Shown piece by piece: positions 1-35,182 of a stretch of DNA of 64,000 bases; positions within the stretch are counted from its first letter, which is position 1; each line of letters opens with the position of its first letter. The notes under the pieces were generated by a model, which saw only the letters and a program-made list of their open reading frames with translations, had not been told where the DNA came from and did not search any database. The stretch lies in contig NMRA01000116.1 in assembly GCA_002633005.1 (NCBI GenBank), positions 44,483 through 108,482 of the forward strand, given 5' to 3'. The DNA comes from Phoronis australis (Eukaryota > Animalia > Phoronida). Position numbers and translations under genes: made by a program.

Positions 1-366
1 TGGAAGTTTTACCTTAAAGAAGTTGCGTTCTTGAGAATCTGCCCGCCTTTGTGTCACACTAAGTGACTGAAAGTTAGTCTCCCTATCCCAGGATTTGAAA
101 AAAATCGTTACTTTAGGTTTTTTGAGTGCTGCACATGATTTAAATTCTCTGAGTTTCAAGCAACTTCCAAGACTTTTGATTCGTATAGTCCAAGTTCATA
201 TTGGTCATTACAGCCATAACCTTGTAAGTAGGACTATCTGCCCTGGGTATGAGTTTCCTCAGTTCAAACTAAGGTCAAAGGTCAAGGTCATCGACATCTA
301 TTGTTAGTCACTCTCTCCAAGACTCATTGGGGAGTGCAGCAGCTCACTGTCCTTTGATAATTTCAG

Positions 367-4951
<4,585 letters not shown>

Positions 4952-12289: not shown

Positions 12290-13050
12290 AAACCCCTTGT
12301 AGGATTTTGTGAAATTTGGCAAGTGTATTCCAGCGCGACAAACGATGGCGTTGACTGTCTGACGATTCTGACTACCAGTTTGCTCCCTTGAGTTCATTTT
12401 TTAACATTTTTCTCTTTATCATCAGAGCTCTTTGATGGACTTTCTTTCCAATTTGGCAAATAGATTTCCATTGAGGACACAATGATACCAATTCTCATAT
12501 TCAGACACATTCAACATATCGTATTTTAAATCATCTAGACACCAGTTTCATTTTTATTGTTGGCGTCCCACTCTCCATCAGTCAAACTGGTAGAAAGGCC
12601 ATTATTATGGAAATTGGGCATCCTGTGACCTACTGCCGGAGATTACAGACATCGTGTGCCCTACTGAGATCACAGGCATCGTGTGCCCTACTGAGATCAC
12701 AGCTGACAAGCCATGATGCAGTATTTTGGCAACCCAAGATGGCAAATTATTTTTGTGCCTGTGGTTCAGTATATACCAAGTTCATTGGACCTATAATGAG
12801 TAAAGTACTGTGATTGATGTTCATGAAATTTAGCAAATAAGTCACTATCATGAGGACACCAACGCCTGCCTTCGTTCAGGCGGATTTGACCTAGCTGCGC
12901 CCCCTAGTGGTCTTTTGGTTACTTTTGCGACATGTTTTCACCGGCTATCTCCCTATCCATGAAACTAAGGTGCAGGTTGTGTTCCTATATGCTCAGCGTA
13001 CTCTAGAGGACGTTCTTTTGTTTCTTAAGTGCTGCTCCCTCTAATGAAAA
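12290..13050 (-). repeat. Diverged reverse-orientation fragment of the CCACTAG-motif (HINE) repeat family
   Basis: Contains GCGCCCCCTAGTGG and TTCATGAAATTT(G/A)GCA segments, the reverse complement of the 30.8-34.3 kb repeat. Confidence 0.45.
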
Positions 13051-13164
13051 TGGCTAAAATAATGATCATCTCTTGTATCTGTATACTACAAAGCACATGG
13101 TGGGGGCATATCAATGCTCTGTGTTGTTCTAAATGTTAAATATTTAGAGAGCAAAAGACAAAGA

Positions 13165-16100
13165 TCATTCTTCTTTTTCTATAAAAGGCAGTTTACCATT
13201 ACTATAGTAGTCGTAGGGTGTGCTTGTGTATCTTATAACATACTCCGGGTAATATTGCCTATTTTCGAATATCACAAAAATATAGGGATCTACCATTTGA
13301 TTGACAACACTGTCGTACAGCAAGGAACCTTTCTCAGAACCAACGGGTGGCGGTCTCTTCATACCCCGCTCACCCTTTGTGAACTTACCCACGACCACAC
13401 TACACACAAACATGTCAAACTGTTTGTTACTCTCTATACCAGGTCGAGGTGGTGGAATGCAAGATGTGTCCACCTTCTTTGTGTCTGTATAATGAAAACT
13501 AGGACATCCATCTGGCAGGACACTGGGCGGTACTTGCGAAGAACCAAGACCAGGCTCGACATCAACTTGAGGAAAAGGCCAGCCAAAATAGTATTGAGTG
13601 ACGGAGACCCCGGTACGTCCGAGTAGCTGCTTGGCTCCAGAGTCAGCCGCAATAACATTTGCCTCAGGAGGAGTTGGGGTACATCTTACCTCAGAAGCTG
13701 AAAAGTAGAGGAATGGAAGTCAGCTATTAGCTTAGATTGAATACCCGGCCTCATGCTATTAAGCTTACAGAATTCATGTGACAATAATGGTGTCCTAATT
13801 TATGCTCAATAAGTAAAGGAAATCAGTAATTGAATTAGAAAACACATAAATGTCTTTATACAGCAGGTGATATACATCCGTCTGTACATCCACACAAATG
13901 TGCAGAAACAATGGTAACAATGTCTATATCAGACATCGGTACCAACCAATTGTACGTAAACAACATCATTTCAACCGTATTCGAGCATATTTTGTGTGCA
14001 GAAAAGTCAGACATTAGAAAGATGTTTATGATCGACATATGTCCCGAATAAAGATAAATGATACGTGCATCGCAAGCTCGTTACCAGAGATGGAAAGGAG
14101 ACAGAGGTAGGCGATATAAGGTCATTTATTATGACTATTACAATTACAATAACGTATAATAGGTAATCTATGGTAAGATGGGTAATAAAAAGCGCCGGCC
14201 ACGTGGAAGTACGAGAGACTGACGAAAACTGGGAGGAAGAGGGTGGGAAAATTGAACTTAGTTATGATGTACGACAATGTGGCCGGAACAAGGTGAACTG
14301 AAAGAGAGGTTACAATAACAAAGAAAAACGCCCCTAAAGACATGTGACAATCGTCAGCCTATAAGAGCCAAGAGCTGACCAAACTCGAGGCACGTGATAA
14401 CAGCAGACCGCACTGCGAAGGCTGGGAGGCGACGTGTAGTCCTGCACAAAGGAATAATGGAATAGACCGAGATGATGGGGAAAAGGAGTAAGACGAGTCC
14501 ATATGCTCACATAAATATATTTAACGAGTGAAATACCATTTACTTTAAGGTCATTATAAACCAGAATCGTTGAATATATGAAATGCTGTAAAGAAAGCAC
14601 TAACAAGCCAGGAGTAACACAACACAAGTGGTCAAAGCAACATGACACCTGGACAGGTTAGACCAGCAAAAAGATCAAGAAAGCCATGTATATGAAACTT
14701 GCTAGTCAATGCCCTCAGTCAGCAACCAGGATGAGACTCCTAGTAGCCCTTCTTATGGAATTAAGACATATGAGTATATAAAAGTATAAGAATATAAAAA
14801 AATTCTTCAAGAAGAGTAGTAAAAAAATTAGCGAAATTTTGCACCAATTTTTTTGACTAATTGTGAAAATAATTTACGGTTACTTTCATCTACTTTTTGG
14901 AAATCTACTGAAATTAAACTTCCTCAATGGTCTAATGATTGTGTGCTGGAATGACAACTGACCAAGGTCAATGGTTCAAACCTATCCTTACCGGAAGAAA
15001 AACGAAAAAATCCGAAAAAATGCTGATCGTTGACCACAATGAGTATACCAGATACTTGAGCTCGACCTTCTATGAATGCCTGTAACACCTGAATAGGGCT
15101 GCACAAATTATCAACGAAACAAAATGTATGTCATGCCAATCAATCCATGTAAACATACTAGAGGTTAAAAAATAGATCAACAAATTTCTGAAGTTGACCA
15201 AACTTACGCTAAGCAACCTCCTGATAATGTTGACCTTGTGTCTGCAAAATATAACCAAGTATGTTTGTATTGAGATACTGCGGTGGTGTTTTAAGTACAC
15301 GAACCTTGGAGTTTACTGTTCTTTGAGCTATAGCTGTGAGAGTAACACGCATAACTGGCAAAGTAGGTTCCTGAAAATATTATAGAACACATTAGCGGAG
15401 TCGCAAAGTCTTGGTCCTACTAAAGTATGGCATACTGTCCAGTGAAATATACTTTTACAGATCAGTTTTGCCCACAAGCAGGGCTTGACAAAAAAGAGGA
15501 AATTTTTACAGCCCTAAATACACATTTCAATCTAAACCATACCTCAACAGATCGAAAGTAAATATTAGTATCACAAGATCATGTTACTGTGTCGTGTTGG
15601 CAAAACGCACTCATCTTAAGCAGTACCTGACATCTATTTCAGCAACAACAATGATGGCAATTAGATGCAACAAAAGATATTTTTTAAAATAAAAATAATA
15701 AAGATAATGATGAAAAAATTGAAATGTGAGTGGCAGGAGCTTATTCTTGATTTGCTGCAGGGAGACCTACAAAATTATAATTACGATACAAAATTACAAA
15801 AAATTGAAAATCGATCCATAGATTATCTAGAAAGCCTGAAATACATACACATTTAATTCCAACAAACAATTTAATTTCAACGCAAATGGAAAAAAGTCAA
15901 AACGAAAACCTGTGGCTCATACCCCAACTGTTAGCATGGAAAAATGAAAGTCAAAAATAACATACTTTAAACTATAGAATGCATTAATCACAATCCTAAG
16001 TTGGCCAAACTTTTCAGTTTCAAACAGTACTTACAGGAGATAATTGTTCATACGCCACGCTGGTGTAGAAGAAACTATATGACAAGAAATAACTACCAAG

Positions 16101-17139
16101 ACACTGAAAATAGGCTGGCAGAATTTGTAAACAATGGCTTAGACCAATAAGATCATTCAGAATCTGTCACGTGATCACTCAAGTCACAAAATAGAACATG
16201 AAAAATGTCAAAATAAATTGAAATCGGACGTCTGGCACATGCTACATTTTTCAGTGTTACGGCATTCAAGCACAGCCTATGAGGTTTTGACTATGGCCAC
16301 CTACCATCCCGTAAACCTACCAGGCTTAGCCTATAATGGTATTCATGGCATTTCAAGTGTATAATCCGCTATCATTGGGTCACAATGCATGCTTGAAATA
16401 TTTTATCAATTTGTAACCTCGAAGAAGCATCTCAATTGTGGCACAGCCATCTGTTACCTTGTCCATACACAGTTTCATTGGCACTTCCAGATAGTCGGAA
16501 ATCCAGGTTCTGTTCACATATGATGTCGGTCAGATCGGGGTTGGTGCCATGAAAGAGTTTTATCTCATTCAATGACTGTTTACCATTCTTCTGTAGCACT
16601 GCATTTCTGTGACTGTGAATAGACAATCGAACATGTAACACAGTCACCTTGCTGTAAAAAATCAAGCAGCACATGCATAACAGACTATTTCCAAAGGACA
16701 ACAACAACAACAACAACAACAACACAGTTTCGGAGAATAAAGATATTAGAATCATCTTTCAAAAGGCAAATTTTCTGCTTTATTTAGTTTAAACCATAAC
16801 TGCATCAAACAAATTTCAATGGAATTCAATTCAAGTCAAACATATTTCAAAATGACCTTCTTTCAACATTGATAGAAAATCAGCTTTTCAATGAACTCTG
16901 TAGGTCCATCAACTACACAGGTTTGTATGAAGTCACAACCCTTGTAAAACTGTATGGCTACATCTAAACAAGAATCAAATTCATAACTCCTCACATACGT
17001 ACTCAGCATAAAGTCTCCACAACTCGGGGTTCTCGACACGCTCAATGGATACGATGGTGGCACTCATAGTACGGTAGAACATGGTGGCAACTTTCTTGTA
17101 TTCTGGGGAATCACCATCTAATGTGATTCTTATGAACCC
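13165..17139 (-). CDS. PARP catalytic domain exons (PARP7/11/12-like mono-ADP-ribosyltransferase, H-Y-I triad)
   Basis: Motifs LFHGT (exon 16458-16612), YGQGTYFA (joined to exon 15305-15370), and RPPP, LYDSVVN, PYIFVIF, QYYPEYVI (last exon) match the TiPARP/PARP12-type catalytic domain. Ile stands in place of the PARP1 catalytic Glu. Confidence 0.92.
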
Positions 17140-20100
17140 CTAGCAAAAACCCAAAATTAAAAACAGTTAATAAGCTCATTTCTATTTTTGAATCAATGAT
17201 GAACAACACAGTTACTAGATATCGTAAACGTTCGGGTTAACGCCCATGTTCAGTTAACCACCCACCCACGATTTCTGGAAATTTCACGTTTAAGCGCCCA
17301 TGTCTGGTTAACCGCCCACCCCCGATTTTTTGGTTTGCTAATTTAACCGCCCAGGGCGTTAACCCGAAAGTTTACGGTAAGCATTTGCCACGTGGAAATT
17401 AAATTCTCCCTCACTAACTCAGGATGCAAATCAACATAAGTCAGGGGCCAGGAACTAATCTTTGTATACACAATTGATCCCAAAATTATTTTTGAAATTT
17501 TCCATTCGACATTGAGATTAGTGCAAGTCTACACTTGATGACCTCCAGCAACAAACTCAAATAAAAACTTGAAATTTCAAGTTTAGACTCGAAATTTCAT
17601 CAGTAATGCAGTGGCCATCAAGTGCAAACTAGGATTAACCAGTTATCCGTGAGCCATTATGTATTCGAGCATACAATAATAGATATTCATTGGCACAGTA
17701 ACAGAATTATAAAATGCCAAAAGTTTAATTTTGATCATAAACATTAAACCTCGGGCCCAAGAATTTTTGGTCTTACAGTTTCAGCCAGTTGTGCACAGAA
17801 CAACAACTGCTTAGTACCATCACATGTCACCTTGCTATTGTCGAACCAATTACGCTTGATGTCACGCTTATACACAAAAAGTTTTGAAGTTCATACAACC
17901 AAGTCCACATGAATATCTTTACAGTACTTTATTTCCAACATAGCTGAAAATTATCACTTACCAGTAATTACAATTCCCCAAAATTTCAAAATGCAAATAA
18001 TTTGCTTTAAAAATTAACTTTCACTGCATGGTGTGATGTAGCTAATGTGACCTTGCTCAAGGTCACCAAATGATGCTAGTGCCTGGAAGTGCCTGACCCA
18101 CACCTTGGTACACTGAAGAAAATCTAAAGTTTTCATCTGAAATAGTGTGCCAATATCATACCATGAATGATACGCTTACAAGGAAGTCATGCATTTCTAT
18201 AGGGCCTTTCATACAAATGTCGTCGTGTCGATGGTTTGGGGAGTTGCAGTCAGTATGAACCCTTAACTCCAGTCCTGGATCGCAGTTAACAGCTTCCGAA
18301 GTTAACATCGCAGTTAACAGGTGGATTTAATAGTGCAGCGTTGACGCTGCGGTGCAGTATGAACGCTTAACTTTGGTCCAATCGAAGTTATTGCCAGGTG
18401 CCACTGTTATCGTCAACAGTTACAGGGTAGTGTAGTCACTAATAGCTGCTTATATTTTGCTCTAATAATCACCAATCGATTTAAAAATAAATTTAATGCC
18501 ATTTAGGACATGTAAATTTTCCCAAATTGTAACATTGAAAAAAATCTTAGCATGCAGCGCTACCTTGCGATAGCTTCGAAGACAACAGCGTCACCAACCG
18601 TTTATTTCGATATTCATTTTAACTGCCGAAGCCAGTATGAACGGTCCAGTTAACAGCGCTGTTTAGGTCGACGCTCTGCTCAGACCGGAGTTAAGTCAAT
18701 ATGAAAGGGCCTTAAAGATATGTGGGAATTTTCACCGCTCGTCCTGAACGGCTTTTACCAGGATCAAAGAGAGCGCGGCACCAAAGTCGGACACAGTTGT
18801 GAGGACCACATCGTCCAGTGCGAGCAAGACACAATTAAGAGTAATTACCAGACTATAAACTGTAGTAATCATCTCTGGCTGTAAATACTGGCAAATTCTC
18901 AAATGTATTAACCGAACACCACGGCAGTATTCAGCTGGAAAAAAAACAACCAAGTACAGTTTTCGATTTTTAAAAATTGATGAATTAAAAAGCCAAAAAC
19001 TACAAACAATGCGTACGATTGAAGATAACCGACCGTGTGCACTGATATCCTTTCTGTCTCGTTTAACCAGAATTTTCACAAGGAAACAGTTGTACTTAAC
19101 TTGTGCCCACTCTTCATTTTTTTGACTCGGCTGACAATGAAAAATCTAGAATAGTTATGCAGTCAGAGCAACTGAAATTGTCCAGAGATTAAAAATCTTC
19201 AGTTTGACTACCACCATATTTGCACTTATGTATATATTTTATGATTTGAGTTCTAATAAAGATTAAACTTGAACTAATGACACGTGTAGTTTTGTTTGCT
19301 AAGAAACGTTTAGTACGGTAATCTGGAAAATTCAGGGATGGGTTCACAATTAACTAAATTAATTTAATTAAGTTTAGATGGCAATCAAAATCTACCACTG
19401 TTTTGGCACTTCAAGTTAAAAATAAAATAAAACGATATCAACCCTTTCCCGGAATGAAAAAAACAAGTAGACCAGAATATTACAAATGAAATAACGAAAA
19501 CTGGTATGAAGCATATTTAAAACCACCGTTCCTTTGGGAAGTGGCCCTTTGTCAAGATAAATGCAAATTAACTTTTTAGTCACTTTGTTATAATATTTAA
19601 AATGTACCAAGTTAAAACTACTCTCCACAGTTGCAGGCTATAACTGACTGTGCAAATGGCAGAGAAAACCAATTTGGGTGTAATAACAACCACCATTGTT
19701 GAGACAGTACTGGATATTACTGCTGAACAGGCATCATAAAAGTTGTCTGGGGCTGAGGGAAACTGAGCCGTGACCAGTCTAAGTGAAAAATTCGCCACAT
19801 GTGTTTTCCCGGCCAAGGCAAAATACATTTTCTGTCTACGGCCATGAAAATAACGTCAAGTTCACCAAAGTGAACTGATGCCTAAAGCTTCAACCAACGA
19901 CCTCGGTACACTGATGAATATATTCTAAAGCCGACCACAACGCTTCAACCACATTGTGTGATGAAAAGATGCAAAATTGTGTCTCCCCAGCTATAAAGAT
20001 AAAGTGCAGACAATTTCTGTATCAGCTTTCATGTAACTAGCCATATAGGTACAGAAAGTGACTAGCTGTCATACAATGACTGTTCACGCAGACACAAAGT

Positions 20101-23100
20101 TTTCAAAATATATGTTTAGTTTCAATACCTAGTACACAAAAATGGTTGGAGACAGTTATCAATGGCTTACCTCCACACGTATGTAGTCTCACACCTGTAT
20201 CAACTTGTGAATCATAATTTATATAATCTCATCCAAAGTCTTCCTAACTTTCACATTATGGATCTATCAGTACACATATGTGTTACTGGTGGTCCTGAGT
20301 TCAGTGAAATGTTACAGTAACTACCAATGAAAATTTCCGACGTCAATGAAGAGCAATATTAGAAACTTAGCACTTCCCTGTCCGTGTCTCTCGTGAATTG
20401 ATGTGTACACAGATAGTGGCGGACAGAGCCTCTTGATATCAGGAACACTAATCTAGCTTCTTTTGTGTGGAGCAGGACAATTACTGGATTAGTGGTAACT
20501 TCAGGACAATAAATACTGGCTAAAACGGTTGATTTTTCAACCTATTCAACTTCTGAAATTGAATTTTCGCGTGAAAAGCTTTGAATCCTTTTTCTGAAGT
20601 ACAATAAATATTAGCCAAAAACAATAGCATCATTTATGTTTTGTTGACCAAGGGATGTGTGTACCTTAACGTAATCATATGCGTTTTCTCACATTTAACA
20701 AGTTTTAATAATGAACACAACACTTGCTAATCAAGTTTAGTAGGTTTCCTTTGAATTGAAATTCTTTTTCTATTCACTATACAAATAGCGCAGACAACGA
20801 ACTATGGAGACCTTTTATGCAGTTGAACACCGAAGTTACAGAAGAGCCCCATATTCACGTGATTGTCAACAGTATGTAACCAGTCACTGCCTCTATGCTG
20901 AGTATGCGTAAACACAGATTTAAGTTAGCACAATGGACGTCAGAGAGATGAAGTCGTTTCTCAGAGTACAAAATAAGGAAGTCACCAAACAAGTGGAACG
21001 AGCAGTCCGCTGAAACCACAAGCCAACAACCTTTCAAGAAGAATCATATTTTGGGAGAACAAAACACTGAACTTGACAGCATATCCAATTCTCGCAAGTA
21101 TTAGTATACAAACTTACGCGACATTAGAATATTTTCACTGGCAACTTTCACAAGCCTTGCAATCTTTCATGGAATTTGGTCCTGTGCCTACAAGTACTTT
21201 TCTAACGACTGAGGTGAACCATGAGAACCAAAATTCGATTCACAACATTCAGTTAAAAACCCTTGATACTCGTTGATGAAAGCAGTTCCACTGGGCTTTG
21301 GTATGCGGAGTAAATAATTAGATTGACTTGTGAGCTTAAACAATAGATTGTGAGAATACTTCACAACAGATCGGGTTGTTATCTGATCTTGGAATTAAAA
21401 CCACTTCTGTCTGGAGTTGAAACTGTATAGAGGAATTATTTGTCTTAAATTACCAGGGAGGGTGAAAATGTAATACGTGTAGGAACTATTTTACTCCCTC
21501 ACCTTCTTGGTGGGATCTTTGGTCTCCCAGTGGCTAGGCATATCTGGTATACCTCCACACTGGCTGTGACTCCCACCATCATCGGCTATGTATTCCTCTT
21601 TACAGTAACGGCATGTAGACTGAAACAGAACATGAATTAGATGGCTGAGGGGAGACAACTTTTGCTTCACTGTAGTGTTACAGTATTCAACATGTCCGAT
21701 ACTACACAACCACGGCTTCTAATCAGCTTGTTTCTTGCACACCTAGTTTAGATTACTGATCAACTGACAGTAATCAACACTGTTTTGGTGCTAAAACACT
21801 TATTAAATGTGAATGCTGAGTTAGGACATACAGACAACCGATAACTTGACCAAAGGAGTTAACAGACAAACTTACCAAATTAGTGGACTTAATCCTACAC
21901 TCCGATCAGATGTGGAATATCTTTTTGAAAATTAGAAAAATATGATGTTGGACGCATAAACATGTATTGTTGTCCACTGCGACAAAGTATCTCGTAGATT
22001 ATGCTAGTGTATTATAGACATTAGGACACTTTTCAAGCCCGTGTTTTTAGTGTTATAGCTGATTTGAGAATTTTGAAATTAGCGACAGCTTCAATATCCG
22101 TAAAATTACGCTGCTAAATAATATGCTTTTGTAATTCACGCTAGCCCATAATACTTGTGAAGTAACCAACATAATTTATTTGGTGGATTTACTGGGTACA
22201 CTTTCCTTGAGTGGACCACTTACCACATCTACGCCGTTATTGAAACGTCTACATCGAGCAACCAACGAATGTGCAAACACAAAAATAAATCAAGTAGCAA
22301 TGTCTATTTGTAATAATACATTTGTTTATCGTCTTATAATAATAGTGTACTAAGTTTTGATCCAATCTTGTGAAACAATGTCACTACAATTTGACGACAG
22401 CACGTTCAAGGACATGAAAAAAGTTAATTTTGCATGTATTGACAATGAATTATAGATTAAGTTTCAAATAACTTGACAACTATACGTTGCAATGGAAACT
22501 AATAGCACACTTTTGTAAGCTGTTACGAGATTTATTCACATCCCAAGTTTAAAAAGGCCGTTGACGAATGTCGGAGTTATGACACAATAAATCTATAAGT
22601 AAAAGAATGGCCATGAGAAAATCTCGAATGACACTTGAATGGTAAGTCATAGAGAGAAATAGACAACGCACAGGACACCATGAGCTACCAAAAGTCCCGT
22701 TGTGCCTACAGTGCTTTGCTACGTTACAGTGACCTGTTAGAATTTGGATCACATATGTCAAATGCTCAACTGTCAAGATTTCGAAGGTTATTTACTTGTT
22801 GATCATAATGAGAAAGTTCTGCTTGGCTTGTTTACAAGATTTTTAAGTCCCGGTCAACAGCCTCCCGACTACCTCTTAAACGAAGTTGACCCGTGAAGTT
22901 CATTGGACCAAGAGCGCACCAAGTTAACCCGTGAGCCTCATTTTGGCTGAGAGCATACCAAGTTGACCCGTGAACCTCATTTTGGCCGAGAGCGTACCAA
23001 GTTGACCTGTGAGGCTCATTTTGGCCAACAGCATAGTTACCAAGTTGACCCGTGAGGCTCATTTTGGTTGAGAGCGTACCAAGTTGACCCGTGAGGCTCA

Positions 23101-26100
23101 TTTTGGCGGAGAGCGTACCAAGTTGACCCTTGAGGCTCATTTTGGCTGAGAGCGTACCAAGTTGCGAACACTCATATGTAACATATAAGGATAGCAGGAG
23201 GTACATTGTGCAAAACACTTGCTTCTATTTCTAATAGTCTGTTTGCATTATCACCCATAAATGTCTACATAAGCTTTGGCCTATTAGCAGTTCTCTCCAC
23301 TACAAAGCTTTTTAAGCTCAATACACAAGCATCAACATAGTGTGAGATGGCCCTTGGTTGGTACAGTTGGAATGAAGGTCACTAAATAAGGTTTGAGATA
23401 AGTCATGCACCTTTAAACATTTCACAACTTCAAACACATTTCGTAAAAAAATATTTAACATTGTGGTAATGCTATGTGTTTGACATGTACGTCTGGATCG
23501 TGAACACGAGAAAGACACCAATTAATACACATACTTCAAATAAACTCTTAGTCTGCAGTTTATTTTGTGCCACTGAACCGAGGAAGCAAAGGGAAGACTT
23601 TTTGCGAGTTTCAATTCTCTTGTAGGCAGACTGGAATGCATGAACTTTGCACTGCTTAAACATTCAAGTGACTGTAAATACCTTTCCGCATTTAAAGCAA
23701 TTCATCACCTTCTCACCACCATGTACAGGCACCATCACACCACAGCAAGGGCATCTGTGAAAATAGAAACACAGGTGTCACACACGACGTTCACAAATAT
23801 TTAATAGTATAGTACGGTGGTACCAATACTGATAGTTCTCCTACTCATGTGGTCATTCCTTACGTCCAGGGCCTGTCTGACCGCCTCACCTGGACATTTA
23901 AACAGTTTGACATTTCTATTATTAATTCTCTCCGCAGCCAACTGGTTAATGTCAAAAAAGACCCCCAAAGTTAATAAATCTTGTGTTGTCTAAGATGTCA
24001 GGTGTAAGGATCCCCAGTGCTCAGACAGTTACATAGGTGAAACGAAACAGTCCATTAAAATGCGTACGTCACAACATCGTCGTCCTAGTTACGGGGACAC
24101 TTATGATCGGCTATTTTTAGCCACCTGTGCGCCACTAGACATGATTTCTATACCGACGATGTCACTATCCTAGACTGTGAGGAAGACTGGTTTAAAAGGC
24201 GTGAAAAAGAAGCTCTCCATGAGCGCATTGAGAGTCGCTCCCTCTTTAAATAAAAGAGGTGGTTTACGATTCGATTTGTCACACGTATGGGATGGTGTAC
24301 TGACGTCAATGCCGCGCCGTTTAGCCAAAACGCCACCAATTGGCCAGTTTAATGATAACGTTACAAGCCAAACTGAAGTCCGTGAGATGCGAACGCAACG
24401 TCGCTAATTTTTGTAAGTTTTTTATTCCAGTATTAGACTCAAGCTTGATCTACATTCCAAGAAACTGAGTTACGTTCATGTTTGACTTAAGTTTAAGATT
24501 TGTCTCAACTTCTATTTCAAAAACTTTCATATCCGGTAAGGTAGTCAAAATTTAGACAAAACTTAAGCCAAAGACTTAAGACAAGCTTGAAATCTCTTTC
24601 TTGAAACAAACTTGAGATTTTATCTTAAAATTGGCTGAAATTTAAGATTTGTCTTAGCTAAGTCAGTTTTCTTGGAATCAGCCCCATGTCACTAAGTTAC
24701 CAACACGTCGCTCCATAAACGTTAAGCTGTGAGATCTACTTACACAAGTACGCCTTCCCTTTTCTCAAATTCCTTTACAGAGTCTTCTAACATACGTTCA
24801 TGAATAGCGTCATAAGTAACTGGTTCCAGAATCTTTTTTAATTCAGCTGTAATGGTAATTAATACCTTTGCTGTGTGTTGGCTCGAGAACATTATAGAGC
24901 AGGCACCTTGTATTGTCAGGGTATACTAGTTTGACTGTAAAAATGCCTTTCATTTAGACCACTAAGTGTTAATGACATTGCTCTTAAATTGTTCCTTCAT
25001 CAAATTAAATATGACAGACTTCGAAGGAACTGACATTCATTACTGCTCAAAGTAATGCTCTACAATTTGGCTTGTCACAACATATGAAAGTGAGAATATC
25101 GTAATTGGACAGGGTATATACAGAAACAAGAGAAACGCGGAGTGTTAAAATGCATGCACCCACGAATGCACTGCAGATGGTGTGGTTCTAGGGGAGTTTA
25201 TTTGTATCACAAAAATGGCCACTAGATGGTGCAAAATACGTTGAATCCATCCGAAAACGGTAAAATGCCATCGTTTCTTCAATAGAAAGCTTTTACCTAA
25301 TTTCCTAAAAATCTGTGACAGTCAAGAAACAAAGGAAAACCAAAAAATGAAGTTGTCACTAGAGGGCACAATGTTCATCCGATTCGTCTCAAAGCCATCG
25401 CCATCATCGTCCCTTGTCAACTTCATATAAATACAGTTGCCAATGTTCCAATAAAGATCCTGTAGAGTATTTAGGAAACACAGCTATTTGGCCACAAAAA
25501 ACAAGACTGACACTATGAGGCGCCACAGTAGTTAAAGTCATTGTAAAATCATGGTCAACTGTCCTCTTCACACTAAGAACATATATGCCAATTTTCACAA
25601 TCATCCTTAGAATGCATTGGTTCATAGACGGGCGGACGCCAAAAACAGACTACAAAATGATAAAAATGGCTGCTAGATCGCGCAAAATATGTTGAATCCA
25701 TCTGAAAACAGGTACATTTCTACGTTTTTTAATCAAAAGTTGTTTATTACATTTCATAAAAATCCGTAAAAGACTTTCAGAGAAACAGAGGAAAACTGAA
25801 AAAATAAAATTGCCACTAGGGGGCACAGCGTTCGTAGGATCCGTCTGAAAAACAGACTCGAAAACAGCAAAAATGGCCACTAGATGGCGCAAAATACCTC
25901 AAATCCATCTGTAAACAAGAGGATAGTGTCATCTCACCAATAGATGCCTATAATCCAAGCTTTATGAATATCCGTTGAAAACCTTTGAAGATACAGAGGT
26001 AAAAAAATTGCCTCTAGGGGACACAACGATAGCCAAATCCATCCAAAAGTCATCGTCAACTGTTGTAAATTTTATATCAATTGCTAAATTTAGTAAATAT

Positions 26101-29100
26101 CCTCCAGACTGTTTAGGAGAATTACAGCTATGGGCGCAAAAAACAAAACTGCCACAAGGAGGTGCCACAGTGGTCAAAGTCGTCCGAAAATCATCATGAG
26201 CCGTCCTCTTTATAATAACAAATCAGTATAGTTCAGTAGTTACTAAAAGCCTTTCATTTACACAAACTTCGTTAAATACACAACTAGACTTTTTATTAGC
26301 GAGCTTGATACAGGTACCTTTGTAATTTCAAAATAGTCTCCTTTCTTCTGGTGTGCAGATATGAAGTAAAAGACCGAGAGACATAACAAACAAACAAATA
26401 AAAACAGTACCTATATTTCGAGACTTCATGTCACATCATCAGGCAATGACTGGATTGAACATACACATAGCGAAATAAATAGCGAAATCCACGTGACAGC
26501 GAGAAGAAGGGCATACAAGCAGAGCCCTTATGAAAAAGCTTCAGGAAATTCTAATCCCGAAAGCCAGTGAGAATCTCACTGGATTCCAGTTAGATTCCAG
26601 TGAGAATCTAACTAATTAAGATGCCATTTAAATTAGTGAGAAAAAAATTCTCACTCTAGTGAGAATACAGTGATATTCCAGTTAGAATTCAGTGAGAATC
26701 TAACTAATTTGCATAGCATTCCCACTCAGTGAGAATTTGTCTTACTGAAATTCTCACTCAATAGGAATGCTATGCAAATTAGTGAGAATTTGTGTTAATG
26801 AAATTCTCACTGAAAATCTCACTGGGTGAGAATTTTGAACTTAGAAAATTTTGTGTGCCTTTTCAGCCACTGACTGAATAGAATCGAGATCAAACCTTTT
26901 TGGTAACCAAAACACTGCTTATTTTTGTGAGTTTATCTTGAACTTTGACTAAGGATACAATTTAATAATTGCTAATTGTGAAATATAGCAGACATAAAAT
27001 AATAACTATAATGCCTTTGGTGAATCAGCAAAATACTGAAAACTCAGCTGTCAACATGCACAGAATGAAGACATCAGCCTAATACTGGTGCTTCATGCAC
27101 TCTACTACATGTATGAAATGTACTAACCTTAAGCTTATTAACACGCAAAATCAGTCCAGGATCACCTGTGGTTGACTTGCAGACAAACTGTTCAGTAATT
27201 TCAGAATATTTGTGAGAAAAACATCAACAATCTTCAAGCTATTTCTCCAACTGCTCATTCCTGACGCCATTTTAGTTTGAATTCAGAAATCTGGTTCAAC
27301 TGAAATTTCTACAGTTACAGCCAATCAGGGTGTTTGTTTATCTCAGATTCTCACTGAATTCTCACTCCAATTTTGGCAAGTCCAAATTCTCACTCAATTC
27401 TCACTCAGATTTTTCCTAAGTCTGAAATTCTCACTGATTCTCACTCAGAATTTTTCTAAGACCAAAATTCTCACTGGATTCTCACTGTTACATAACATTT
27501 TCTCACTCATTCTCACTGACTGCCCCTGTTGTTCAATTCCCACTGGGTTCTCACTGGCATTTCTAACTATAATTGGTGATTTAGTGAGAATCTAACTGGA
27601 ATCTAACTGGAATCCAGTGAGATTCTCACTTTCTTTTTCGTATGGGAGAGTGTGAATGTAACACACGGTAGGAAGCCCGCAACCCTATCAAAACAGAGCC
27701 AGAGTGTGATGCACACCTGTGAGCAGTTCATTCAACACAGGTTTTTTGTGACTGATCAATAGCTATTCCAAAATCTTTAGCCGAAATATGTCATTTTCAA
27801 CATACCGAATGATGGTATTAACTACTATTTCTTGCCTACAGTATAGTTATATGTTCGTAACTCAGATATTTGTTAGACATCGTGCTTAAGAAGATTGTAA
27901 GGGATAACATTAAAGGAGAATGCCACCTGATTTAATTAGTCTTTTTTCCGTCTTAATCGGTCTATATATCCACATCACCTCTCATACGGTCGACCTTACC
28001 TTGCCGAGAGGTGTCGCGTTAACCTGTGAGGAAGGTGAGAAACGATGCATTGACGTCAGTGGTTCGTTTGCAGAGTGAATGCCGCTATGTTGCGGTGTAT
28101 CGTTCCCGCTTGTCCGAACTATGCAGCTGCGAGGAAAGTGGGTATATCGTTTTTTCGAATTCCTCAAGAGTCCGAAATGCTTATAGGAAGTGGCTCGCAG
28201 TAGTGAAGAATGAAAAGTACGCTGTAAATAGCAGTGCCTGACGAATGCCGGCTTACCAAACAACTATCAATACATTTCGTTGTCTGTCAGAGCTTGTTCA
28301 TGGTGCCTCTTTAGTATTTCTTCATCACTGTGTTCCTGTTCGAAATGAAATGTAACGATCCACCTGCGAAGTCTTCGTCCGGATGAGCCCTCGGTTGTCT
28401 AAGTTGGGATTGTAAGTTGCCATGTTGACGTTTATTACTGAGCGTTCTGTTTCAAAATGAATTATTCTCACCCTTACCAAGACTTATATTAAAACTGAAA
28501 CAAAGTCTGTCTCATTAGATGCAATTTGTAATGCCTTTGGAGTGTTCGAGAGTGCCAATGATTTGAGAAGCCAGCAATGAATAAATCACTGCGTTACCGG
28601 CTTTAGGTGCAATAAAACTAATTGACGGGACACCGAGGCCATGTGAGCTCATGCTAATTTAGTGTTTGATGGCAGAAACTGTTGTGAAACAACTCAATTT
28701 CTATCCCACAGTCAGGTGTTAGGGGAATCTTTATTTACATTTACATTATTCACATAATGATCGTCAATGCACAACTTGTGCCCTGACGGTTCTGTCTGGC
28801 CAAAGCGGAACCTGAATTCCGACGAGTAAGTAGATATGCAGTTTCATGGCTAATTCACCAAACATAATCATGTGCACTTTACTTCTTAGGCTCACTAGTA
28901 TAGTATTTTCTTGACTGTAAGTTTAGTTTCCAACTTTGGCTGGTTTATGTCCGTGATGTCTAATCGCTTTCCGAGCCATGATATGACTGGCCGGGATTAA
29001 ACGATCAGTCCAACCGCGACGGGCCTCAGATCGTGCTCCGAGCCACTGGCCACGATACAAGCGTTTTGAACTAAAAAATCACAAGTCTAAACAACACAAA

Positions 29101-32100
29101 TCTAGGTTCTCCTGTCTGTATCTCACGGCAAAATACTTAGAATTATCTCTGAATAGACCCCAAACTCCTGCTATGGACCTTATTGGCCTGCCGAACTTTG
29201 TAGGCTGCGGTGTGTCCAAACTCCAATAAATCCGTAGCAACGAAATAAAACAACATGTTTTTATAAAAACTAGGTATATTTTTAAGGGTTTTACTTCGAA
29301 GTTTGATGATTTATTGGTGTGAAAAGATGAATTCAAGCAATAAGCTGACACCAATAACCCGTGTTGTGAACTGTGTGTGAAACCAATTACATCATTGGAT
29401 AATTTCAACCCCTCCGTCTGCTGTCAGGTGTCAATTAGTAACGCAACCGTACGTGCTGTAATGGAGTAGAACTACTCGATCTAAATTGATACAAATTAGG
29501 TTGTTTTTTTGGGTGGCATGCTCCTTTAAGGTGATCAAACCTGGTGACAGATTGAATGTAGTCATTTATTATCAGAATATAAAGTCACGTCACCTAATGT
29601 CATGAAAAACAACCCCAGTTGTGAAAGACTACAACCAGTGGCCAAATGTAATGTCACCACCGCCAGATGGACGGACGAACGGAGATGATGGCATAAAGTG
29701 TCCACATATAAATAATATGGCGGCATAAAAATTCTACATTCACAAACCTCACTCAGTGAGAAGATGGCCACTGTGTGAGAATTTTAGGAAGGATAGTCAA
29801 GTAGGAAAACAAATTATCACTGGGTGCTATGTAAACTATATTAGTACCACCACTAGATTGGCATGTAGTATCTTACAACAGATGGTGCTATGTGTTACAA
29901 TATGGCAACTTCTGCAGTCTTCAGACTCGTCGAACACTTCTTCAGATATATAGGCTTAAGGTTCATACATAGCATTACTTAGATTCTCAATTCACTGTGT
30001 ATTAGTTCCTTAGTTCTTAGCCAAAATACCTAAGGGTCAGACCTGCCTGACACTCCAGGCATTGGAGTCTGGAATAACACTGTATTCTCACTGAAGTGAG
30101 ATTCACATTGTATGGAATTCCATGAAATTCTCACTTCAGCTTTTTCATTTTGCCTGCCATTGAATTCCTGTCAACGAATAGCGAAGTGTCATGCATTTGT
30201 TTGCAAACAAAAAACTCACTTTTCATCTGAGTATGGTACAATTTTATCCTGTAAGTGGTCAAAATCATAATATCGTGTTCAGTTCAGCTTTAAAGACACT
30301 TTGAATAATTACCAAATTTCAGTCCCATAACCATCTGCAGACACTCAAAGACATGCTTTTGTAGAGTATGGATAGTTGGTTATACGAAGCCGTTGTCAAT
30401 CCCACCCTCCACCTTGACACATTTTCAGCTAGGTGCAGATGCATTCAAATTTGATAGACCACAATTTGAGTCTTAACTTAGAAGAAATGAATGGCATACA
30501 TAGTGTAGAGTTCCGGTAATTTTGTGCGCACGTGTACAGTGAACTTCCTGCTCATCGCAATAAAACGGCGCATCTCAAATCGGCAAAGGGACGATATAAA
30601 ATTTGAGTTCAAGTTATTACACACGATTGTACAATGCAAAAAGTTACGTTACCAAGTGGTATCCACTTGTGACAGCCTTTAAGTGGACACTCCACTGAAT
30701 AGTGCACCATCGCATCATGACCACGGCGATTAACCTCAATAAAAGAAAAACACCATGAAATAACAGTTTGAAATCCAACTCGGTCATCCATTAATCAAAC
30801 AAGAGCAATGCAAAGCATTGAAATGGGCCCACAACTGCACTGCAAACGGCATGCATTTAGGGGAGTTTATTTGTACCATAAATTTAATAAATATCTTAAA
30901 GAGGGTTTGGGAGATATAGCCATAGACACATACAAATGCCACTAGGAGGTAATCACAATAGTCCAAGTTGTCCAAGAATCCTCATTAGCTGGCCTCATTA
31001 CAGTAAACGCCAATTTCCAAAAACATCCTCAGTGTTTGGTTGATAGAGGGGCAGATGCCAAAAACAGACTAGAAAACAGTAAAAATGAACACTAGGTGGA
31101 GCAACATATGTTGAATCCATCTGAAAACAGAAACACGTCATCATTTCTTTAATAAAAAGCTATTTACCAAATGTCATGAAAATCCATCAAGGAACTTCGG
31201 AGAAACTGAAGAAAACAGAAAAAATGAAATTGCCACTAGGGGGCACAGTGTTTGTCGTATCAGTCTGAAAGTCGTCACCTTCCATTGTCAACTTTATATA
31301 TATTAAATCCACTTGATAAATTTAACAAAGATCCTGCAGAGGGTTTAGGAGATACAGCAACCGACGTGAAAAAAACAAAACTGCTACTAGGAGGGACCAC
31401 AGTAGTCGATGTCATCGGATAATCATCGTCAGTTTTCCTCTTCACAATAGGGACATGTATGCCAATTTTCACAATCACCCTTTGAGTGATTTGGCTGATA
31501 GAGGGGAGAGTGCCAAAAAAACAGACTCGCTACTAGGTGGCGCAAAATACCTCGAATCCATCTGAAAATGGAAGGATAGCGTCATCTCACTAAGAGATGC
31601 CTATCTACCAAATTTTATGAAAGTTCGTTGAGCACCTTTGAAGACACAGACTGAGGTAAATGTAAAAAACTAAAATTTCCACTAGGGGACACACCAGTAG
31701 TACGATGTGTCCAAAAGTCGTCGTCATCTGTTGTCAACACTTGCTTAATACACTTGCTTAATTTGATAAAGAACTTGCAGAGCGATAAGGAGATCCAGCC
31801 ATGGGCGCAAAAATAAACAAGAGCAACGCGGAGCGTTGAAATGCGCCCACAATTGCACCGCATACGGTATCCTTCTAGGGTTGTTTATTGGTACCATAAA
31901 GTGGCCAGTAGAGGGCATACTTTGCAAAATGGAAAGGCATGGTCATTGTCTCCTCAATAGGCTAGGGGCAAAATGTGAGTAATCTTCATAATACAAGCAC
32001 ATCCTATACACCAGTTGCTTAAAGCACCACAGAAACATAGAATTAAAAACAAATTTACCAACATACGAGATTAGCACAGCATTAGAATGCCAGAAACAAA

Positions 32101-35100
32101 TTTCTACTTGGAACTTTTCCTTCACAGTCACGAAGTAACACAAAGTATACACCTGAAGACCTATGAAAATACAGAGGTCAATGTAAAATACTAAAATTGC
32201 CACTAGAGGCAAATACTAAAATTGCCACTAGAGGCATACCGGTAATCAGAATCATCCTAAAGTCGTCATCGTCCGTTGTCAACATCACATAAATACACTT
32301 GCTAAATTTAGTAAAGATCCTGCAAACGGTTTGGGAGATACAGCCATGGGCGCAAAAAAACAAAACTGCCACTAGGAGGCGCCACAGTAGTCCAAATCGT
32401 CTGAAAATCATTGTCAGCTGTCTTCCTTATAGTAAGCACATACACGCCAATTTTCACAATCATCCTTTGAGCGGTTTGGTTGATAGAGGGGTGGACGCAA
32501 AAATACAGACTCGAAAACAGTAAAAATGGCCACTAGGTGGCGCAAACTACGTCGAATCCATCTGAAAACAGTAGGATAGCGTCATCTCACTAATAGGTGC
32601 CTACATACCAAATTTCATGAAAATCCGTTCAATACTTTTGAAGATACAAAGGTAAGCGTAAAAAACTAAAATTGCCACTAGGGGGCACACCGGTAGTCGG
32701 ATCCGACCAAAAGTCGTCATCTTCCGTTGTTAACATCATATAAATATACTTACACAATTTGTAAAGATCCTGCGAACGGTTTAGGAGATACAGCCATAGG
32801 CGCAAAAAAACAAAACTGCCACTAGGAGGCGCCACAGTAGTCGAAATCGTCGGAAAATCATCGTCAACCATCCTCTACATAGTAAGCATATACATGCCAA
32901 TTTTCACAATCATCCTTTGAGCGGTTTGGTTGATAGAGGGGTGGACGCACAAAAACAGACTCGAAAACACTAAAAATGGCCACTAGGTGGCGCAAACTAT
33001 GTCGAATCCATCTGAAAACGGGAGGATAGCGTCATCTCACTAATAGGTGCCTACATACCAAATTTCATGAAAATCCAATAAGGACTTGTGAAGATACAAA
33101 GGTAAGCGTAAAAAAATTAAAATTGCCACTAGGGGGCACACCGGTAGTCGGATCCGTCCAAAAGTCGTCATCTTCCGTTGTTAACATCATATAAATATAC
33201 TTACACAATTTCGTAAAGATCCTGCGAACGGTTTAGGAGATACAGCCATAGGCGCAAAAAAACAAAACTGCCACTAGGAGGCGCCACAGTAGTCGAAATC
33301 GTCGGAAAATCATCGTCAACCGTCCTCTACATAGTAAGCACATACATGCCAATTTTCACAATCATCCTTTGAGCGGTTTGGTTGATAGAGGGGTGGAAGC
33401 ACAAAAACAGACTCGAAAACAGTAAAAATGGCCACTAGGTGGCGCAAACTATGTCGAATCCATCCGAAAACGGCAGGATAGCGTCATCTCACTACTAGGT
33501 GCCTACATACCAAATTTCATGAAAATCCGTTCAGGACTTTTGAAGATACAAAGGTAAGCGTAAAAAACTAAAATTGCCACTAGGGGGCACACCGGTAGTC
33601 GGATCCGTCCGAAAGTTCGCACATGCCGTCCCATTCATGAATGGAACATATGTGCCAAATTTCATGAACGTATGTCAAAGGGTTTTGGAGATAGAGCAGC
33701 GGACGCCGGACGCCGGACGGACGCCGCCCGGACGGACGGACGGACGGACGGACGGACAGAGATGACGGCATAATGCGTCCACATATAAATATGTGGGCGC
33801 ATAAAAAACTGCCACTAGGAGGTGCCGCAGTAGTCCAAGTTGTCGGAAAATCATTGTCAGCTGCACTCTTCACAGTAAGAACATATACAGCAATTTTCAC
33901 TATCATCTTTAGAGTGGTTTGGTTGATAGAGGGGCAGACGCCAAAAAAACAGACTCAAAAACAGTAAAAGTGGCCACTAGGTGGCGCAAAATACCTCGAA
34001 TCCATCTGAAAATGGGAGTTTAGTGCATCTCACTAATGGATGCCTATCTGTCAAATTTTATGAAAATCTGTTGAGGAACTCCGAAGATACAGATGTATAC
34101 GTAAAAAACTAAAATTGCCACTAGGGGGTACACCAGTAGTCAAATGGGACCGAAATTCGTTGTCATGTGTCATAAGCTTCATATGAACACATATGCCAAA
34201 TCGCATTGAGATCCTATGAGGGGTTTAGGAGAGACAGTTGCAGACGCTGGACACCAGACGCCCAGACAGAGATGACAGCAATACGCACCCACCTGTAAAT
34301 ATGTAGGAGTATGAAAACAGATGAAATTGACACAAAAATTTAAGCCATTTTCATCAAACAATCCTGAGAGACGAAAGAAGTTATTGTCCAGGCGAAGTCT
34401 CCAGTAGAAGAGGTTGTTAGGAACCTGCCATATGGGTATTTTATCCTCTAATCTATACCGTAGTTTTGCGTAGGTAATCTGGTAATACAGCTCCAGCAGA
34501 GTCCTTAATCACTGATCAATCGAGTCGGGTGGTTGCATTTGCAACAATTTTAAGACTTTTATTGAAATAATTTCAAGACTTGTATTTTCTTTCTATCAAG
34601 GACTCAGTTGACAGACAGATTTTGGGATGGACTGTGTGAAAACGTGACCCACATTGCAAAGTACTGATTTTTTTCCGATGTGACATCAGCATTTTACAAT
34701 GTGCACAGAAATTTAGCATACTGGGAAGTTTTCAAGAAGAACAATGAATTTGTAATACTTCTGAATATGCTGGGAATAGCATAATTGCAACCTTTTGATA
34801 ACCCTGTCGATTGCTCTTGAATCAACAAACCTTACTCTCACCTCCACCTACATGAAAAATGTAATGGTTTGTTTACCCTAGCTTAAATTTAACATTCAAG
34901 CTCGTGAACTCATTTGTAATTGTGCAATCCTCTCATGTTTGATATTTTCACTTAATTTGCATTGATCACTATTTTCACAGAAGTTCGACAGAATTATTTT
35001 ATTAATAGTTCACAAAATAGCCAACAAAGCCAGCTGTACCTTTTTGCTTTTAAGTGCTTTCTTCACAGTGTTTGTCATACAGTTGGAGCAGATCTTGTGA

Positions 35101-35182
35101 TGGGCAGTGCAGACGACAAACTTAAAATTCAAGAGTGAGGCACTACATGAGCAACAGACCAATCGGCTTGTAGTTGCAGACT
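13165..35182 (-). CDS. RING-IBR-PARP coding region, either a separate gene or the C-terminal continuation of prominin B. Exons: 35040-35182, 30653-30734, 24744-24846, 23682-23754, 21503-21619, 17003-17139, 16458-16612, 15305-15370, 13165-13697 (stop TGA)
   Basis: All nine exons join in phase. The 30734 acceptor is an uncommon GAG after a pyrimidine tract. Translation: SATTSRLVCCSCSASLLNFKFVVCTAHHKICSNCMTNTVKKALKSKK...ECPLKGCHKWIPLAELKKILEPVTYDAIHERMLEDSVKEFEKREGVLVCPCCGVMVPVHGGEKVMNCFKCGKSTCRYCKEEY...HSQC..DMPSHWE...SPEYKKVATMF...IERVENPELWRLY...LFHGT...VYGQGTYFAS...MFVCSVVVG...RPPP...LYDSVVN...IFVIFENRQYYPEYVIRY. Confidence 0.88.
16697..16723. repeat. (CAA)n microsatellite
   Basis: Directly visible. 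Confidence 0.9.
17220..17379. mobile_element. Small Tc1/mariner-type MITE
   Basis: TIR TATCGTAAACGTTCGGGTTAACGCCC versus GGGCGTTAACCCGAAAGTTTACGGTA, with TA ends. A decayed relative lies near 4140-4300. Confidence 0.7.
18201..18712. mobile_element. Harbinger/PIF-like MITE
   Basis: TIR AGGGCCTTTCATA versus TATGAAAGGGCCT, flanks TAT/TAA, and internal repeated CAGTATGAAC subterminal motifs. Confidence 0.65.
21503..35182 (-). CDS. RING1 (C3HC4, RNF216/TRIAD3-like) plus IBR zinc-binding exons
   Basis: Pattern CxxC-x11-C-x3-H-x2-C-x2-C...C-x4-C, then a helical linker, then CPxC...CxxC-x4-CxxC...H-x2-C. Spacing and context resemble, from my recall, the RING1-IBR part of RBR ligases such as RNF216. 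Confidence 0.75.
22880..23165. repeat. 39-bp minisatellite, about 7 copies
   Basis: Unit approximately CCAAGTTGACCCGTGAGGCTCATTTTGGCTGAGAGCGTA. Confidence 0.92.
23845..24345 (+). mobile_element. Penelope-like retroelement remnant (linker plus GIY-YIG endonuclease, disrupted)
   Basis: Translates across frameshifts and a stop to VVIPYVQGLSDRL...SLRSQLVNVK..CVV*DVRCKDPQCSDSYIGETKQSIKMRTSQHRR...AIFSHL...VTILDCEEDWFKRREKEAL...PSLNKRGGLRFDLSHVWDGVL, typical of Penelope C-termini. Confidence 0.85.
25123..26215 (+). mobile_element. 5' part of a HINE-like (non-autonomous Helentron) element with CCACTAG core repeats; probable 3' end at about 29660-29731
   Basis: Begins AAACAAGAGAAACGCGGAGTGTT, like the copies at 30796 and 31815. 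Contains diverged core units. A matching 3' end (GACGG microsatellite, hairpin, GCATAAAAA) lies at about 29670-29731. Confidence 0.65.
26555..27646. mobile_element. Foldback-like MITE built from ATTCTCACT/AGTGAGAAT motifs
   Basis: 36-bp exact inverted repeat (AGTGAGAATCTCACTGGATTCCAGTTAGATTCCAGT at 26566; reverse complement ending 27630), many internal 9-bp motif copies, and CCC.../...GGG-type ends. Confidence 0.75.
27914..29525 (+). mobile_element. Kolobok-like non-autonomous DNA transposon, copy 1
   Basis: TTAA|AGGAGAATGCCACC ... GGTGGCATGCTCCT|TTAA. A second copy lies in inverted orientation at 57712-59395. Confidence 0.8.
30796..34318 (+). mobile_element. Nested HINE-like elements: outer about 30796-34318, inner about 31815-33807, with internal tandem units of about 450 bp
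   Basis: 5' AAACAAGAGC..ATGCGCCCAC, tandem core (equivalent positions 32521, 32971, 33423), (GGAC)n microsatellite, and 3' hairpin ATGCGTCCACATATAAATATGTGGGCGCAT followed by an A-run. The inner copy interrupts the host unit at an A-run. Confidence 0.75.

Follow-up and report, generated by a model that had tools for sequence, protein, structure and literature searches.

What can the front half of a RING-between-RING (RBR) ubiquitin ligase be for once its catalytic end is gone and another enzyme stands in its place? The question is raised by a locus of the phoronid Phoronis australis, contained in a stretch of 64,000 nucleotides (positions 44,483 to 108,482 of contig NMRA01000116.1, assembly GCA_002633005.1) that is called the window here and whose own numbering is used throughout. 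Its minus strand carries a RING1, a helix and an IBR domain resembling those of the human RBR ligase RNF216, a PARP12-like domain follows in the same frame, and transcripts are spliced into this unit from the cytoplasmic-tail micro-exon of a prominin gene. These are known parts in an undescribed arrangement, and the transcripts are real. The best explanation, which we would trust about halfway, is that an RNF216-derived RING1-helix-IBR and a PARP12-like domain, with no RING2 and linked to a prominin tail, make up what is likely a membrane-anchored mono-ADP-ribosyltransferase, in which ubiquitin would be bound rather than transferred. The gene had been placed at 13165 to 35182 by an initial annotation and extends beyond those limits.

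The RING1-IBR-PARP exons

A frame of 468 residues with no internal stop is formed by nine minus-strand exons running from 35182 to 13165, with ends set by splice signals and GT-AG at every inner junction. RNA evidence came from three raw runs (X1-X3) and one contig set (X4), all under the same species label. The exons are the following.

35040-35182, minus strand: RING1, first six zinc ligands (sense-strand read depth up to 11)
30653-30734, minus strand: RING1, last ligand pair C-P-x3-C (82-nt exon from a splice scan, and reads)
24744-24846, minus strand: RING1-IBR helix (alignment with the helix of homologues)
23682-23754, minus strand: IBR, first four ligands (scallop alignment; reads over 23724)
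21503-21619, minus strand: remaining four IBR ligands, with the beginning of the PARP domain in the same exon (sequence)
17003-17139, minus strand: N-terminal part of the PARP domain (PARP12, E 1.5e-5; an X4 contig piece ends at the donor)
16458-16612, minus strand: PARP His motif (H-G-T) and D-loop (PF00644, E 0.016 for the exon alone; reads over 16475)
15305-15370, minus strand: PARP Tyr motif (sequence; reads over 15342, with a synonymous change)
13165-13697, minus strand: last exon, with a Pro/Gly-rich long insert, the PARP C-terminal strands, Ile at triad position 3 and the stop (PARP12, E 2.9e-14)

In the exon at 16458-16612 an alternative acceptor 6 nt further in likewise keeps the frame; in the last exon, where the choice of acceptor is sequence-based, an alternative at 13484 would make the spacer 71 residues shorter.

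The zinc ligands of RING1 are C9, C12, C24, H27/28, C31, C34, C63 and C68, and the four residues between the last two agree with RBR RING1 domains, in which ligands seven and eight are 2-4 residues apart, as against two in canonical RINGs (PMC9834252; papers are cited by PMC number, each citation covering passages of the paper only). Alignment with homologues places an extra stretch of about 10 residues inside this RING1. Given that single zinc-finger exons are too short for Pfam or PDB searches to name RING1 or IBR, profiles of relatives were informative: the RING-helix part of the window protein scores 36.3 bits with a profile of 17 homologue RING-helix stretches (E 6.4e-11 among 270 proteins), with shuffles at 20.2 bits or less (n = 1000) and the next non-member at 7.7 bits, and the first PDB match of the family RING profile is RNF216 (E 2.7e-7). 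Of the RING and IBR profile matches on which the initial annotation had staked its reading, the former is thus borne out, whereas Pfam on single window exons returned no IBR match.

The second zinc domain (ligands C110, C113, C128, C131, C136, C139, H151 and C154) appears from sequence comparison to be an IBR, by way of a homologue in the scallop Argopecten, XP_069133906 (P0172), which has the same order of RING1, helix, IBR and PARP. Residues 4-153 of the window protein match that protein at E 5.6e-14; among 270 proteins it is the only one that the zinc domain matches, with a score of 88 against the scallop IBR that was reached by none of 2000 full shuffles and by none of 2000 in which Cys and His were held fixed. 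The scallop RING1-IBR in turn aligns with human RNF216 at E 2.5e-18, with 69.7 bits over RING1 and IBR and -0.1 bits over RING2, and its IBR matches the Pfam IBR family just below the cut-off (E 1.4e-4, 22.3 of 24.3 bits).

The PARP start motif stands 7 residues past the second zinc domain in the same exon (21619-21503), within the interval of about 10 residues that had been proposed for an RNF216-like RING1, helix and IBR followed by a PARP12-type start. Since the end of the IBR and the start of the PARP domain share an exon, any RING2 exon would have to split one domain or the other. A pattern scan of introns 23681-21620 and 21502-17140 found no RING2-type Cys/His pattern; a less strict scan detected no open stretch rich in Cys in the latter, for which such a search had been suggested, and in the former a single, unrelated-looking stretch of 36 residues that would split the IBR. 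A RING2 with its catalytic Cys is accordingly absent from the spliced model and the flanking introns, as initially proposed, and the scallop homologue likewise lacks one.

For both PARP exons tested (17003-17139 and 13165-13697) the best PDB match is PARP12, and the alignment of the former begins at residue 11 of the PARP12 crystal construct 2pqf. The His, Tyr and Ile motifs (H-Y-I) are present as in PARP12, the Ile in the last exon being what we take to be the third triad residue, in the same motif as in PARP12. The H-Y-I pattern accompanies mono-ADP-ribosylation (PMC9149570), and on the strength of the triad the domain is predicted, with good likelihood, to be an active mono-ADP-ribosyltransferase. 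The spacer after the Tyr motif comprises 112 residues, against a median of 18 in the other PARPs compared. None of 98 N-termini of PARP12-like proteins, most of them with WWE or CCCH domains, matches the window at E<0.01, which agrees with the earlier failure to see a WWE or CCCH exon; upstream of the PARP domain lie RING1 and prominin exons, not tandem CCCH/WWE. The protein is therefore neither an RBR ligase, having no RING2, nor a member of the PARP12 subfamily or a PARP12 orthologue, having no CCCH or WWE.

The gene is expressed. Twelve X2 reads and three X1 reads support the joint 35040-30734, where loose ends at 35038 carry the letters of the exon starting at 30734. Position 23724 in the IBR exon is covered by 5, 11 and 3 reads in X1-X3, with a synonymous change, and the X4 contig piece terminates exactly at donor 17003. 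Coverage of low-repeat exon bins is one-sided, as a minus-strand transcript would give in most stranded libraries: 3.5, 7.1 and 6.3 against 0.04, 0 and 0 in X1-X3 for bin 13000-13638, and 1.5, 2.5 and 0.4 against 0, 0 and 0.07 for bin 21307-21945. The joints between IBR and PARP draw support from the open frame, from the scallop homologue and from the exon that both domains share, and it is very probable that RING1-IBR and PARP stand in this order on a single chain. A candidate exon near 34500 was dropped, there being no reads at 34350-34931. Some reads (32, 29 and 4 in X1-X3) go back 514 nt at 14025-14538, with sides of up to 69 letters, and point to a tandem copy elsewhere or a circular RNA. 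High-copy repeat families occupy 25100-34300, and also 27910-29529 and 57708-59399, and attract heavy RNA reads from other loci; among them are a 450-nt unit, repeated three times in tandem at 32211-33616, and a 1.7-kb element of which two copies lie in opposite orientations.

Relatives in molluscs and annelids

The window protein belongs with an unnamed invertebrate family of RING1-(IBR)-PARP proteins and is set apart from its 21 members by the prominin link. The last exon, searched against 1.84 billion representatives, had 1515 matches, and of the 150 listed, three matched the RING-helix of the window; a profile built from the RING-helix parts of these three gave 156 matches, 120 of them listed. 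Twenty of 269 proteins exceed 97 bits with the RING-helix profile and one cluster mate was added, bringing the family to at least 21. Named members come from gastropods, bivalves, a chiton and the annelid Lamellibrachia, examples being XP_069133906 from Argopecten, XP_046572660 from Haliotis, XP_033751396 from Pecten, KAH9518840 from Bulinus and KAI0241416 from Lamellibrachia, and database names range from 'uncharacterized' through 'PARP7S' to 'serine-rich adhesin'. Two word-based searches with the last exon found no relative among 476 candidates and 1 candidate, respectively, and the ESM Atlas gave PARP clusters only, together with one mollusc cluster of 62 at a score of 0.83 that is a lead and nothing further.

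The family is held together by its RING1 and by its PARP insert. All eight RING1 ligands are kept in the window and in the 18 homologues aligned, and the RING1-IBR helix is well conserved, yet Pfam run on 13 members saw the PARP domain and neither RING nor IBR above cut-off. The insert after the Tyr motif, for which 18 of the 21 homologues could be parsed, is at least 65 residues long in 16 of 17 members measured (65-362 residues), whereas only 7 of 148 other PARPs have at least 60. A fold search (VIA-align) with the model of a homologue returned RBR RING1 structures for all of the top 11 matches (Z 4.9-7.0), the best with Z 7.0, a root-mean-square deviation of 3.3 and 91 residues aligned. Ahead of RING1 the homologues carry some 210-760 mostly low-complexity residues, many with acidic motifs that are presumably SIM-like (resembling SUMO-interacting motifs); with 18 homologues as queries, tblastn matched nothing on the minus strand of the window further upstream than the RING exon, where reads lead to the prominin tail instead. 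When all 11 are constrained to group together, the PARP-domain tree gains 6.46 log-likelihood units (p-AU 0.64), so that one origin is neither rejected nor shown. Given that the layout is shared with the scallop protein and belongs to a family, it is not a one-off of this window.

Other proteins of the comparison set also deserve mention. Entries P0080, P0097, P0117, P0151-P0165, P0167 and P0270 are family members with an RBR-type RING1 and helix, no IBR and a PARP12-like domain. Outside the family, PARP12-like domains occur in ZZ-MIB/HERC2-ankyrin-PARP, ankyrin-PARP, ZZ repeats-PARP, SH2-WWE-PARP and Tudor-KH-CCCH-WWE-PARP layouts (P0095, P0021, P0130, P0064 and P0128), and P0095, with the front half of Mind bomb, looks like a second E3 front end joined to a PARP.

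The prominin link

Whether the unit is attached to the prominin upstream had been left open initially and is now supported by RNA reads. Three features are concerned.

42095-61881, minus strand: upstream prominin, 15 exons in one open frame with AG/GT ends (membrane segments 3-5 and the extracellular loops)
37749-37778, minus strand: prominin cytoplasmic-tail micro-exon of 30 nt (9 X1 reads have loose ends at 36779 that carry its letters)
36666-36778, minus strand: Ser/Thr-rich linker exon (donor GC at 36665 or, alternatively, GT at 36689; in-frame ATG at 36681)

Transcripts are spliced from the prominin-tail micro-exon to RING1 across two joints. In the mapping of 34350-37250, in which both joints detected were listed, 9 X1 reads (8 starts) and 1 X2 read span the joint 35182-36666 from RING1 to the linker exon, over the GC-AG intron 35183-36665. 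An X4 contig has instead the joint 35182-36690, whose GT donor lies 24 nt upstream and leaves the frame unchanged. From the linker exon 9 X1 reads continue at 36779 with the letters of the micro-exon (37778-37749), again in frame. Three acceptors were candidates for the linker exon; only 36778 keeps the frame open into RING1, and it is 36778 that the reads use, just as both donors seen (joints 36666 and 36690) are frame-keeping. A frame through acceptor 36813 and donor 36743 was dropped, since the sites found in reads are 36778 and 36666. Compared with the window, the X4 contig has 3 changed letters and an in-frame 3-nt insertion in the RING1 exon (35088-35182), as well as 11 changed letters of 148 over 36690-36837, and given these differences it may come from a divergent population, with the splice into RING1 kept.

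The micro-exon follows the exon for the fifth membrane segment (42243-42095) and aligns in the same phase with the micro-exon 2588-2617 of a second prominin at the start of the window. Upstream, three stretches match PF05478: 55345-55650 (E 1.1e-7), 53154-53519 (E 4.9e-4) and 42097-42243 (E 1.1e-8, profile end 771-799), each exon match taken alone being under the whole-protein cut-off. This part shows three hydrophobic regions, with the match running through the fifth membrane segment, and the joints among its 15 exons are sequence-based (frame and AG/GT ends). No N-terminal prominin part, comprising the signal peptide and membrane segments 1-2, was found in the 64-kb window. Together, 17 prominin-side exons and the nine above make a stop-free frame of 26 exons and 1092 codons. 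It is probable, on this evidence, that the full prominin fusion protein is made.

The prominin C-terminus is cytoplasmic, is varied by small exons and is ubiquitinated in mammals (PMC10967083). The second prominin paralogue is represented by its 3' end at 361-4951 on the plus strand, facing the fused copy (PF05478, E 1.9e-11), with exons at about 361-459, 1063-1211, 2588-2617 and 4696-4951, the last with a stop; its tail is of the ordinary, short kind. Near-identical tandem duplicates at 50667-53121 (98.9% over 1230 nt) and 60175-60967 (98.5% over 396 nt) have a single N at their seams (51893 and 60571) and are likely assembly artefacts within prominin introns.

Possible function and known systems

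In RBR ligases the E2 is bound via RING1, the ubiquitin-charged E2 (E2~Ub) is held open and ubiquitin is passed to the Cys of RING2, while the RING1-IBR helix plus the IBR form a ubiquitin site (PMC9834252). Without RING2 and its helix the window protein cannot work as an RBR ligase, and because an RBR RING1 holds E2~Ub in an open, non-discharging state, no route for ubiquitin transfer is obvious. Ubiquitin binding that would recruit or activate the mono-ADP-ribosyltransferase is favoured instead, given that the protein retains its zinc scaffold and, of the allosteric site, the helix. According to the explanation preferred here, a PARP12-like catalytic domain would have taken the place of RING2 in an RNF216 duplicate, in an animal also ancestral to molluscs and annelids, and in the lineage of the window a prominin paralogue would have replaced the long disordered N-terminus of the family. 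The prominin anchor may hold the enzyme at the cytoplasmic face of curved membrane, for example of microvilli or cilia, where ubiquitin chains might bind the helix and IBR and thereby bring in or activate the PARP domain; this domain would modify itself or nearby proteins with single ADP-ribose units. That ubiquitin sensing is the job of RING1-IBR is, judged from the conserved parts, about an even proposition. The most specific form of the explanation, a five-pass prominin whose enzyme tail combines an RNF216-derived ubiquitin sensor with an active mono-ADP-ribosyltransferase, as the membrane-bound branch of an undescribed invertebrate family, is tentative and leans towards the doubtful side; if it is true, a PARP domain in place of the RBR RING2 converts a ubiquitin signal into an ADP-ribose mark.

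Several results weigh against this reading and have to be set beside it. The IBR is absent from 20 of 21 homologues, which keep RING1, helix and PARP, and the full ubiquitin site is consequently dispensable across the family. None of the 21 has the prominin part, and quick trees of the PARP domain (49 rows, with 5 skipped for missing motifs, and 32 rows) leave the window apart from the family. The homologue model behind the fold search has a mean pLDDT of 44.9 (73-82 over residues 11-40), and a fold-match Z under 8 may mean merely a common arrangement. In the RNA, the mapping of 13000-32150 is dominated by repeats, and among the 15 of 226 joints listed there are none from 30653 downward, the joint of IBR to PARP included. 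No read is listed from the micro-exon to the membrane exon 42243-42095, where overhangs are 30 letters long. The fusion joints come almost wholly from one raw run (X1 9, X2 1, X3 0); the RING exon has depths of 5.3, 11 and 2.5 in X1-X3, the linker exon 10.9, 1.4 and 0. The X4 contig extends 59 nt beyond the acceptor, across an in-frame stop at 36801, and translation of a soluble form could begin at the in-frame ATG at 36681.

Four other explanations, which overlap in part, were therefore weighed. From the ATG at 36681, which has G at -3 and +4, a soluble RING1-IBR-PARP protein of about 474 residues could be made within the prominin gene, prominin-linked molecules being read-through from the neighbour. 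In X2 and X3 RING1 has many more reads than the linker exon, and the X4 contig crosses the stop at 36801; both would fit this, as would the homologues, which look soluble (20 of 21 without any 19-residue window above hydropathy 1.4). Yet in X1, at a depth of about 11, there are 9 reads from the linker exon to the micro-exon and 9 from the linker exon to RING1, depth falls to about 1.5 or less just beyond the linker donor, splicing from the X4 donor at 36690 leaves out the ATG, and the splice sites in use are the frame-keeping ones, all of which makes a soluble product of this kind improbable. It is quite unlikely, too, that RING1-IBR is only a folded spacer, or a scaffold for a partner unrelated to ubiquitin, with the PARP acting wherever prominin puts it: the loss of the IBR in nearly all homologues, the decay of the E2 positions and the extra residues inside the window RING1 would be in keeping with such a role, but gastropods, bivalves, a chiton and an annelid all retain the zinc ligands and the RING1-IBR helix pattern, which suggests binding. 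Least credible by a wide measure of doubt is that the second zinc domain is a RING2 (Rcat) that has lost its catalytic Cys. By eye the loop past its second Cys aligns with RNF216 RING2, with Glu at the position of the catalytic Cys; however, the domain is homologous to that of the scallop, as the shuffles with fixed Cys and His indicate, and because the scallop domain falls on the IBR, not the RING2, of RNF216, an IBR is the better assignment.

The remaining alternative was the central proposal of the initial annotation, a one-chain device in which RING1 recruits E2~Ub beside the PARP site and couples ubiquitin with ADP-ribose, for example by placing ubiquitin on ADP-ribose or by modifying E2~Ub itself. 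Its anatomy and the likeness to RNF216 stand, with the eight RING1 ligands kept in the window and the aligned homologues; hybrid ADP-ribose-ubiquitin marks are made by PARP/E3 pairs (PMC12687431), and PARPs with a U-box or UBC domain exist (PMC2964712, PMC4245714). The E2 interface does not stand as well. The positions of RNF216 C517 and Y519, in loop 1 of RING1, are Ser11 and Ser13 in the aligned window protein, and the Y519 position is aromatic in none of the 18 homologues parsed, so that E2 recruitment is presumably weakened; in RNF216 mutation of Y519 reduces discharge, C517A being without effect (PMC9834252). An RBR RING1 moreover keeps E2~Ub open, and the donor-ubiquitin site lies on the helix-RING2 part that is absent here (PMC9834252), leaving no RING2 route for transfer, and the known ADP-ribose-ubiquitin chemistry needs a Deltex RING and DTC (PMC12687431), of which Pfam found none in the homologues scanned. 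Coupling by E2~Ub is hence unlikely, and the preferred explanation remains the binding of ubiquitin next to a mono-ADP-ribosyltransferase.

Links between PARPs and ubiquitin are common, in the form of U-box and UBC fusions (PMC2964712, PMC4245714), ubiquitin-interacting motifs and the pairs PARP9/PARP14-DTX3L and tankyrase-RNF146. In the open main texts no RING-IBR-PARP or prominin-PARP protein was found, although the supplements of PMC4245714 and PMC2964712 could list one; in the main text of two PARP surveys the word IBR occurs 0 times, and a paper on ZAP/PARP12 evolution does not mention RING. Given that all parts are known domains and that clade 3 PARPs shuffle domains often, what is new is the arrangement and not the chemistry. 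ADP-ribosylation is likewise tied to ubiquitin machinery in PARP9/PARP14-DTX3L, tankyrase-RNF146, the Dictyostelium U-box-Macro-PARP and the fungal PARP-UBC, and PARP16, a membrane-anchored mono-ADP-ribosyltransferase, is similar in its tie to the membrane; as far as the sources drawn on go, none of these has an RBR front half or a prominin anchor. RNF216/TRIAD3, the human RBR E3 (PDB 8eb0, 7m4m), has the same order of RING1, helix and IBR and is the best PDB match of both the family RING and the scallop RING1-IBR, whereas the window protein lacks the IBR-RING2 helix, RING2 and catalytic Cys, has Ser/Ser at C517/Y519 and continues from the IBR into a PARP domain. As a natural RBR front half cut from its catalytic end, it makes the role of RING1-IBR without RING2 testable and lets one ask if an enzyme of another kind can be governed by the allosteric ubiquitin site of RBRs. 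PARP12 (a clade 3 mono-ADP-ribosyltransferase; PDB 2pqf) shares the H-Y-I triad and is the best match of the PARP exons tested, but the window protein is without CCCH/WWE, has the 112-residue spacer and carries RING1-IBR and a prominin tail in front. With the mollusc and annelid family it shares the RING1-helix before a PARP12-like domain and the long insert, and with the Argopecten protein also the IBR; it differs in having prominin and lacking their low-complexity N-terminus. More broadly, the comparison brings out a PARP family without annotation, with at least 21 proteins in databases and a RING that Pfam misses. Finally, the window shares with Prominin-1/CD133 (PF05478) membrane segments 3-5 and the tail micro-exon, but here the tail continues into some 470 residues of RING1-IBR-PARP; prominins are described as lacking any enzymatic domain in the passages drawn on from a 2024 review (PMC10967083), and if the long transcript is translated this one would, contrary to that description, be a prominin with a catalytic domain.

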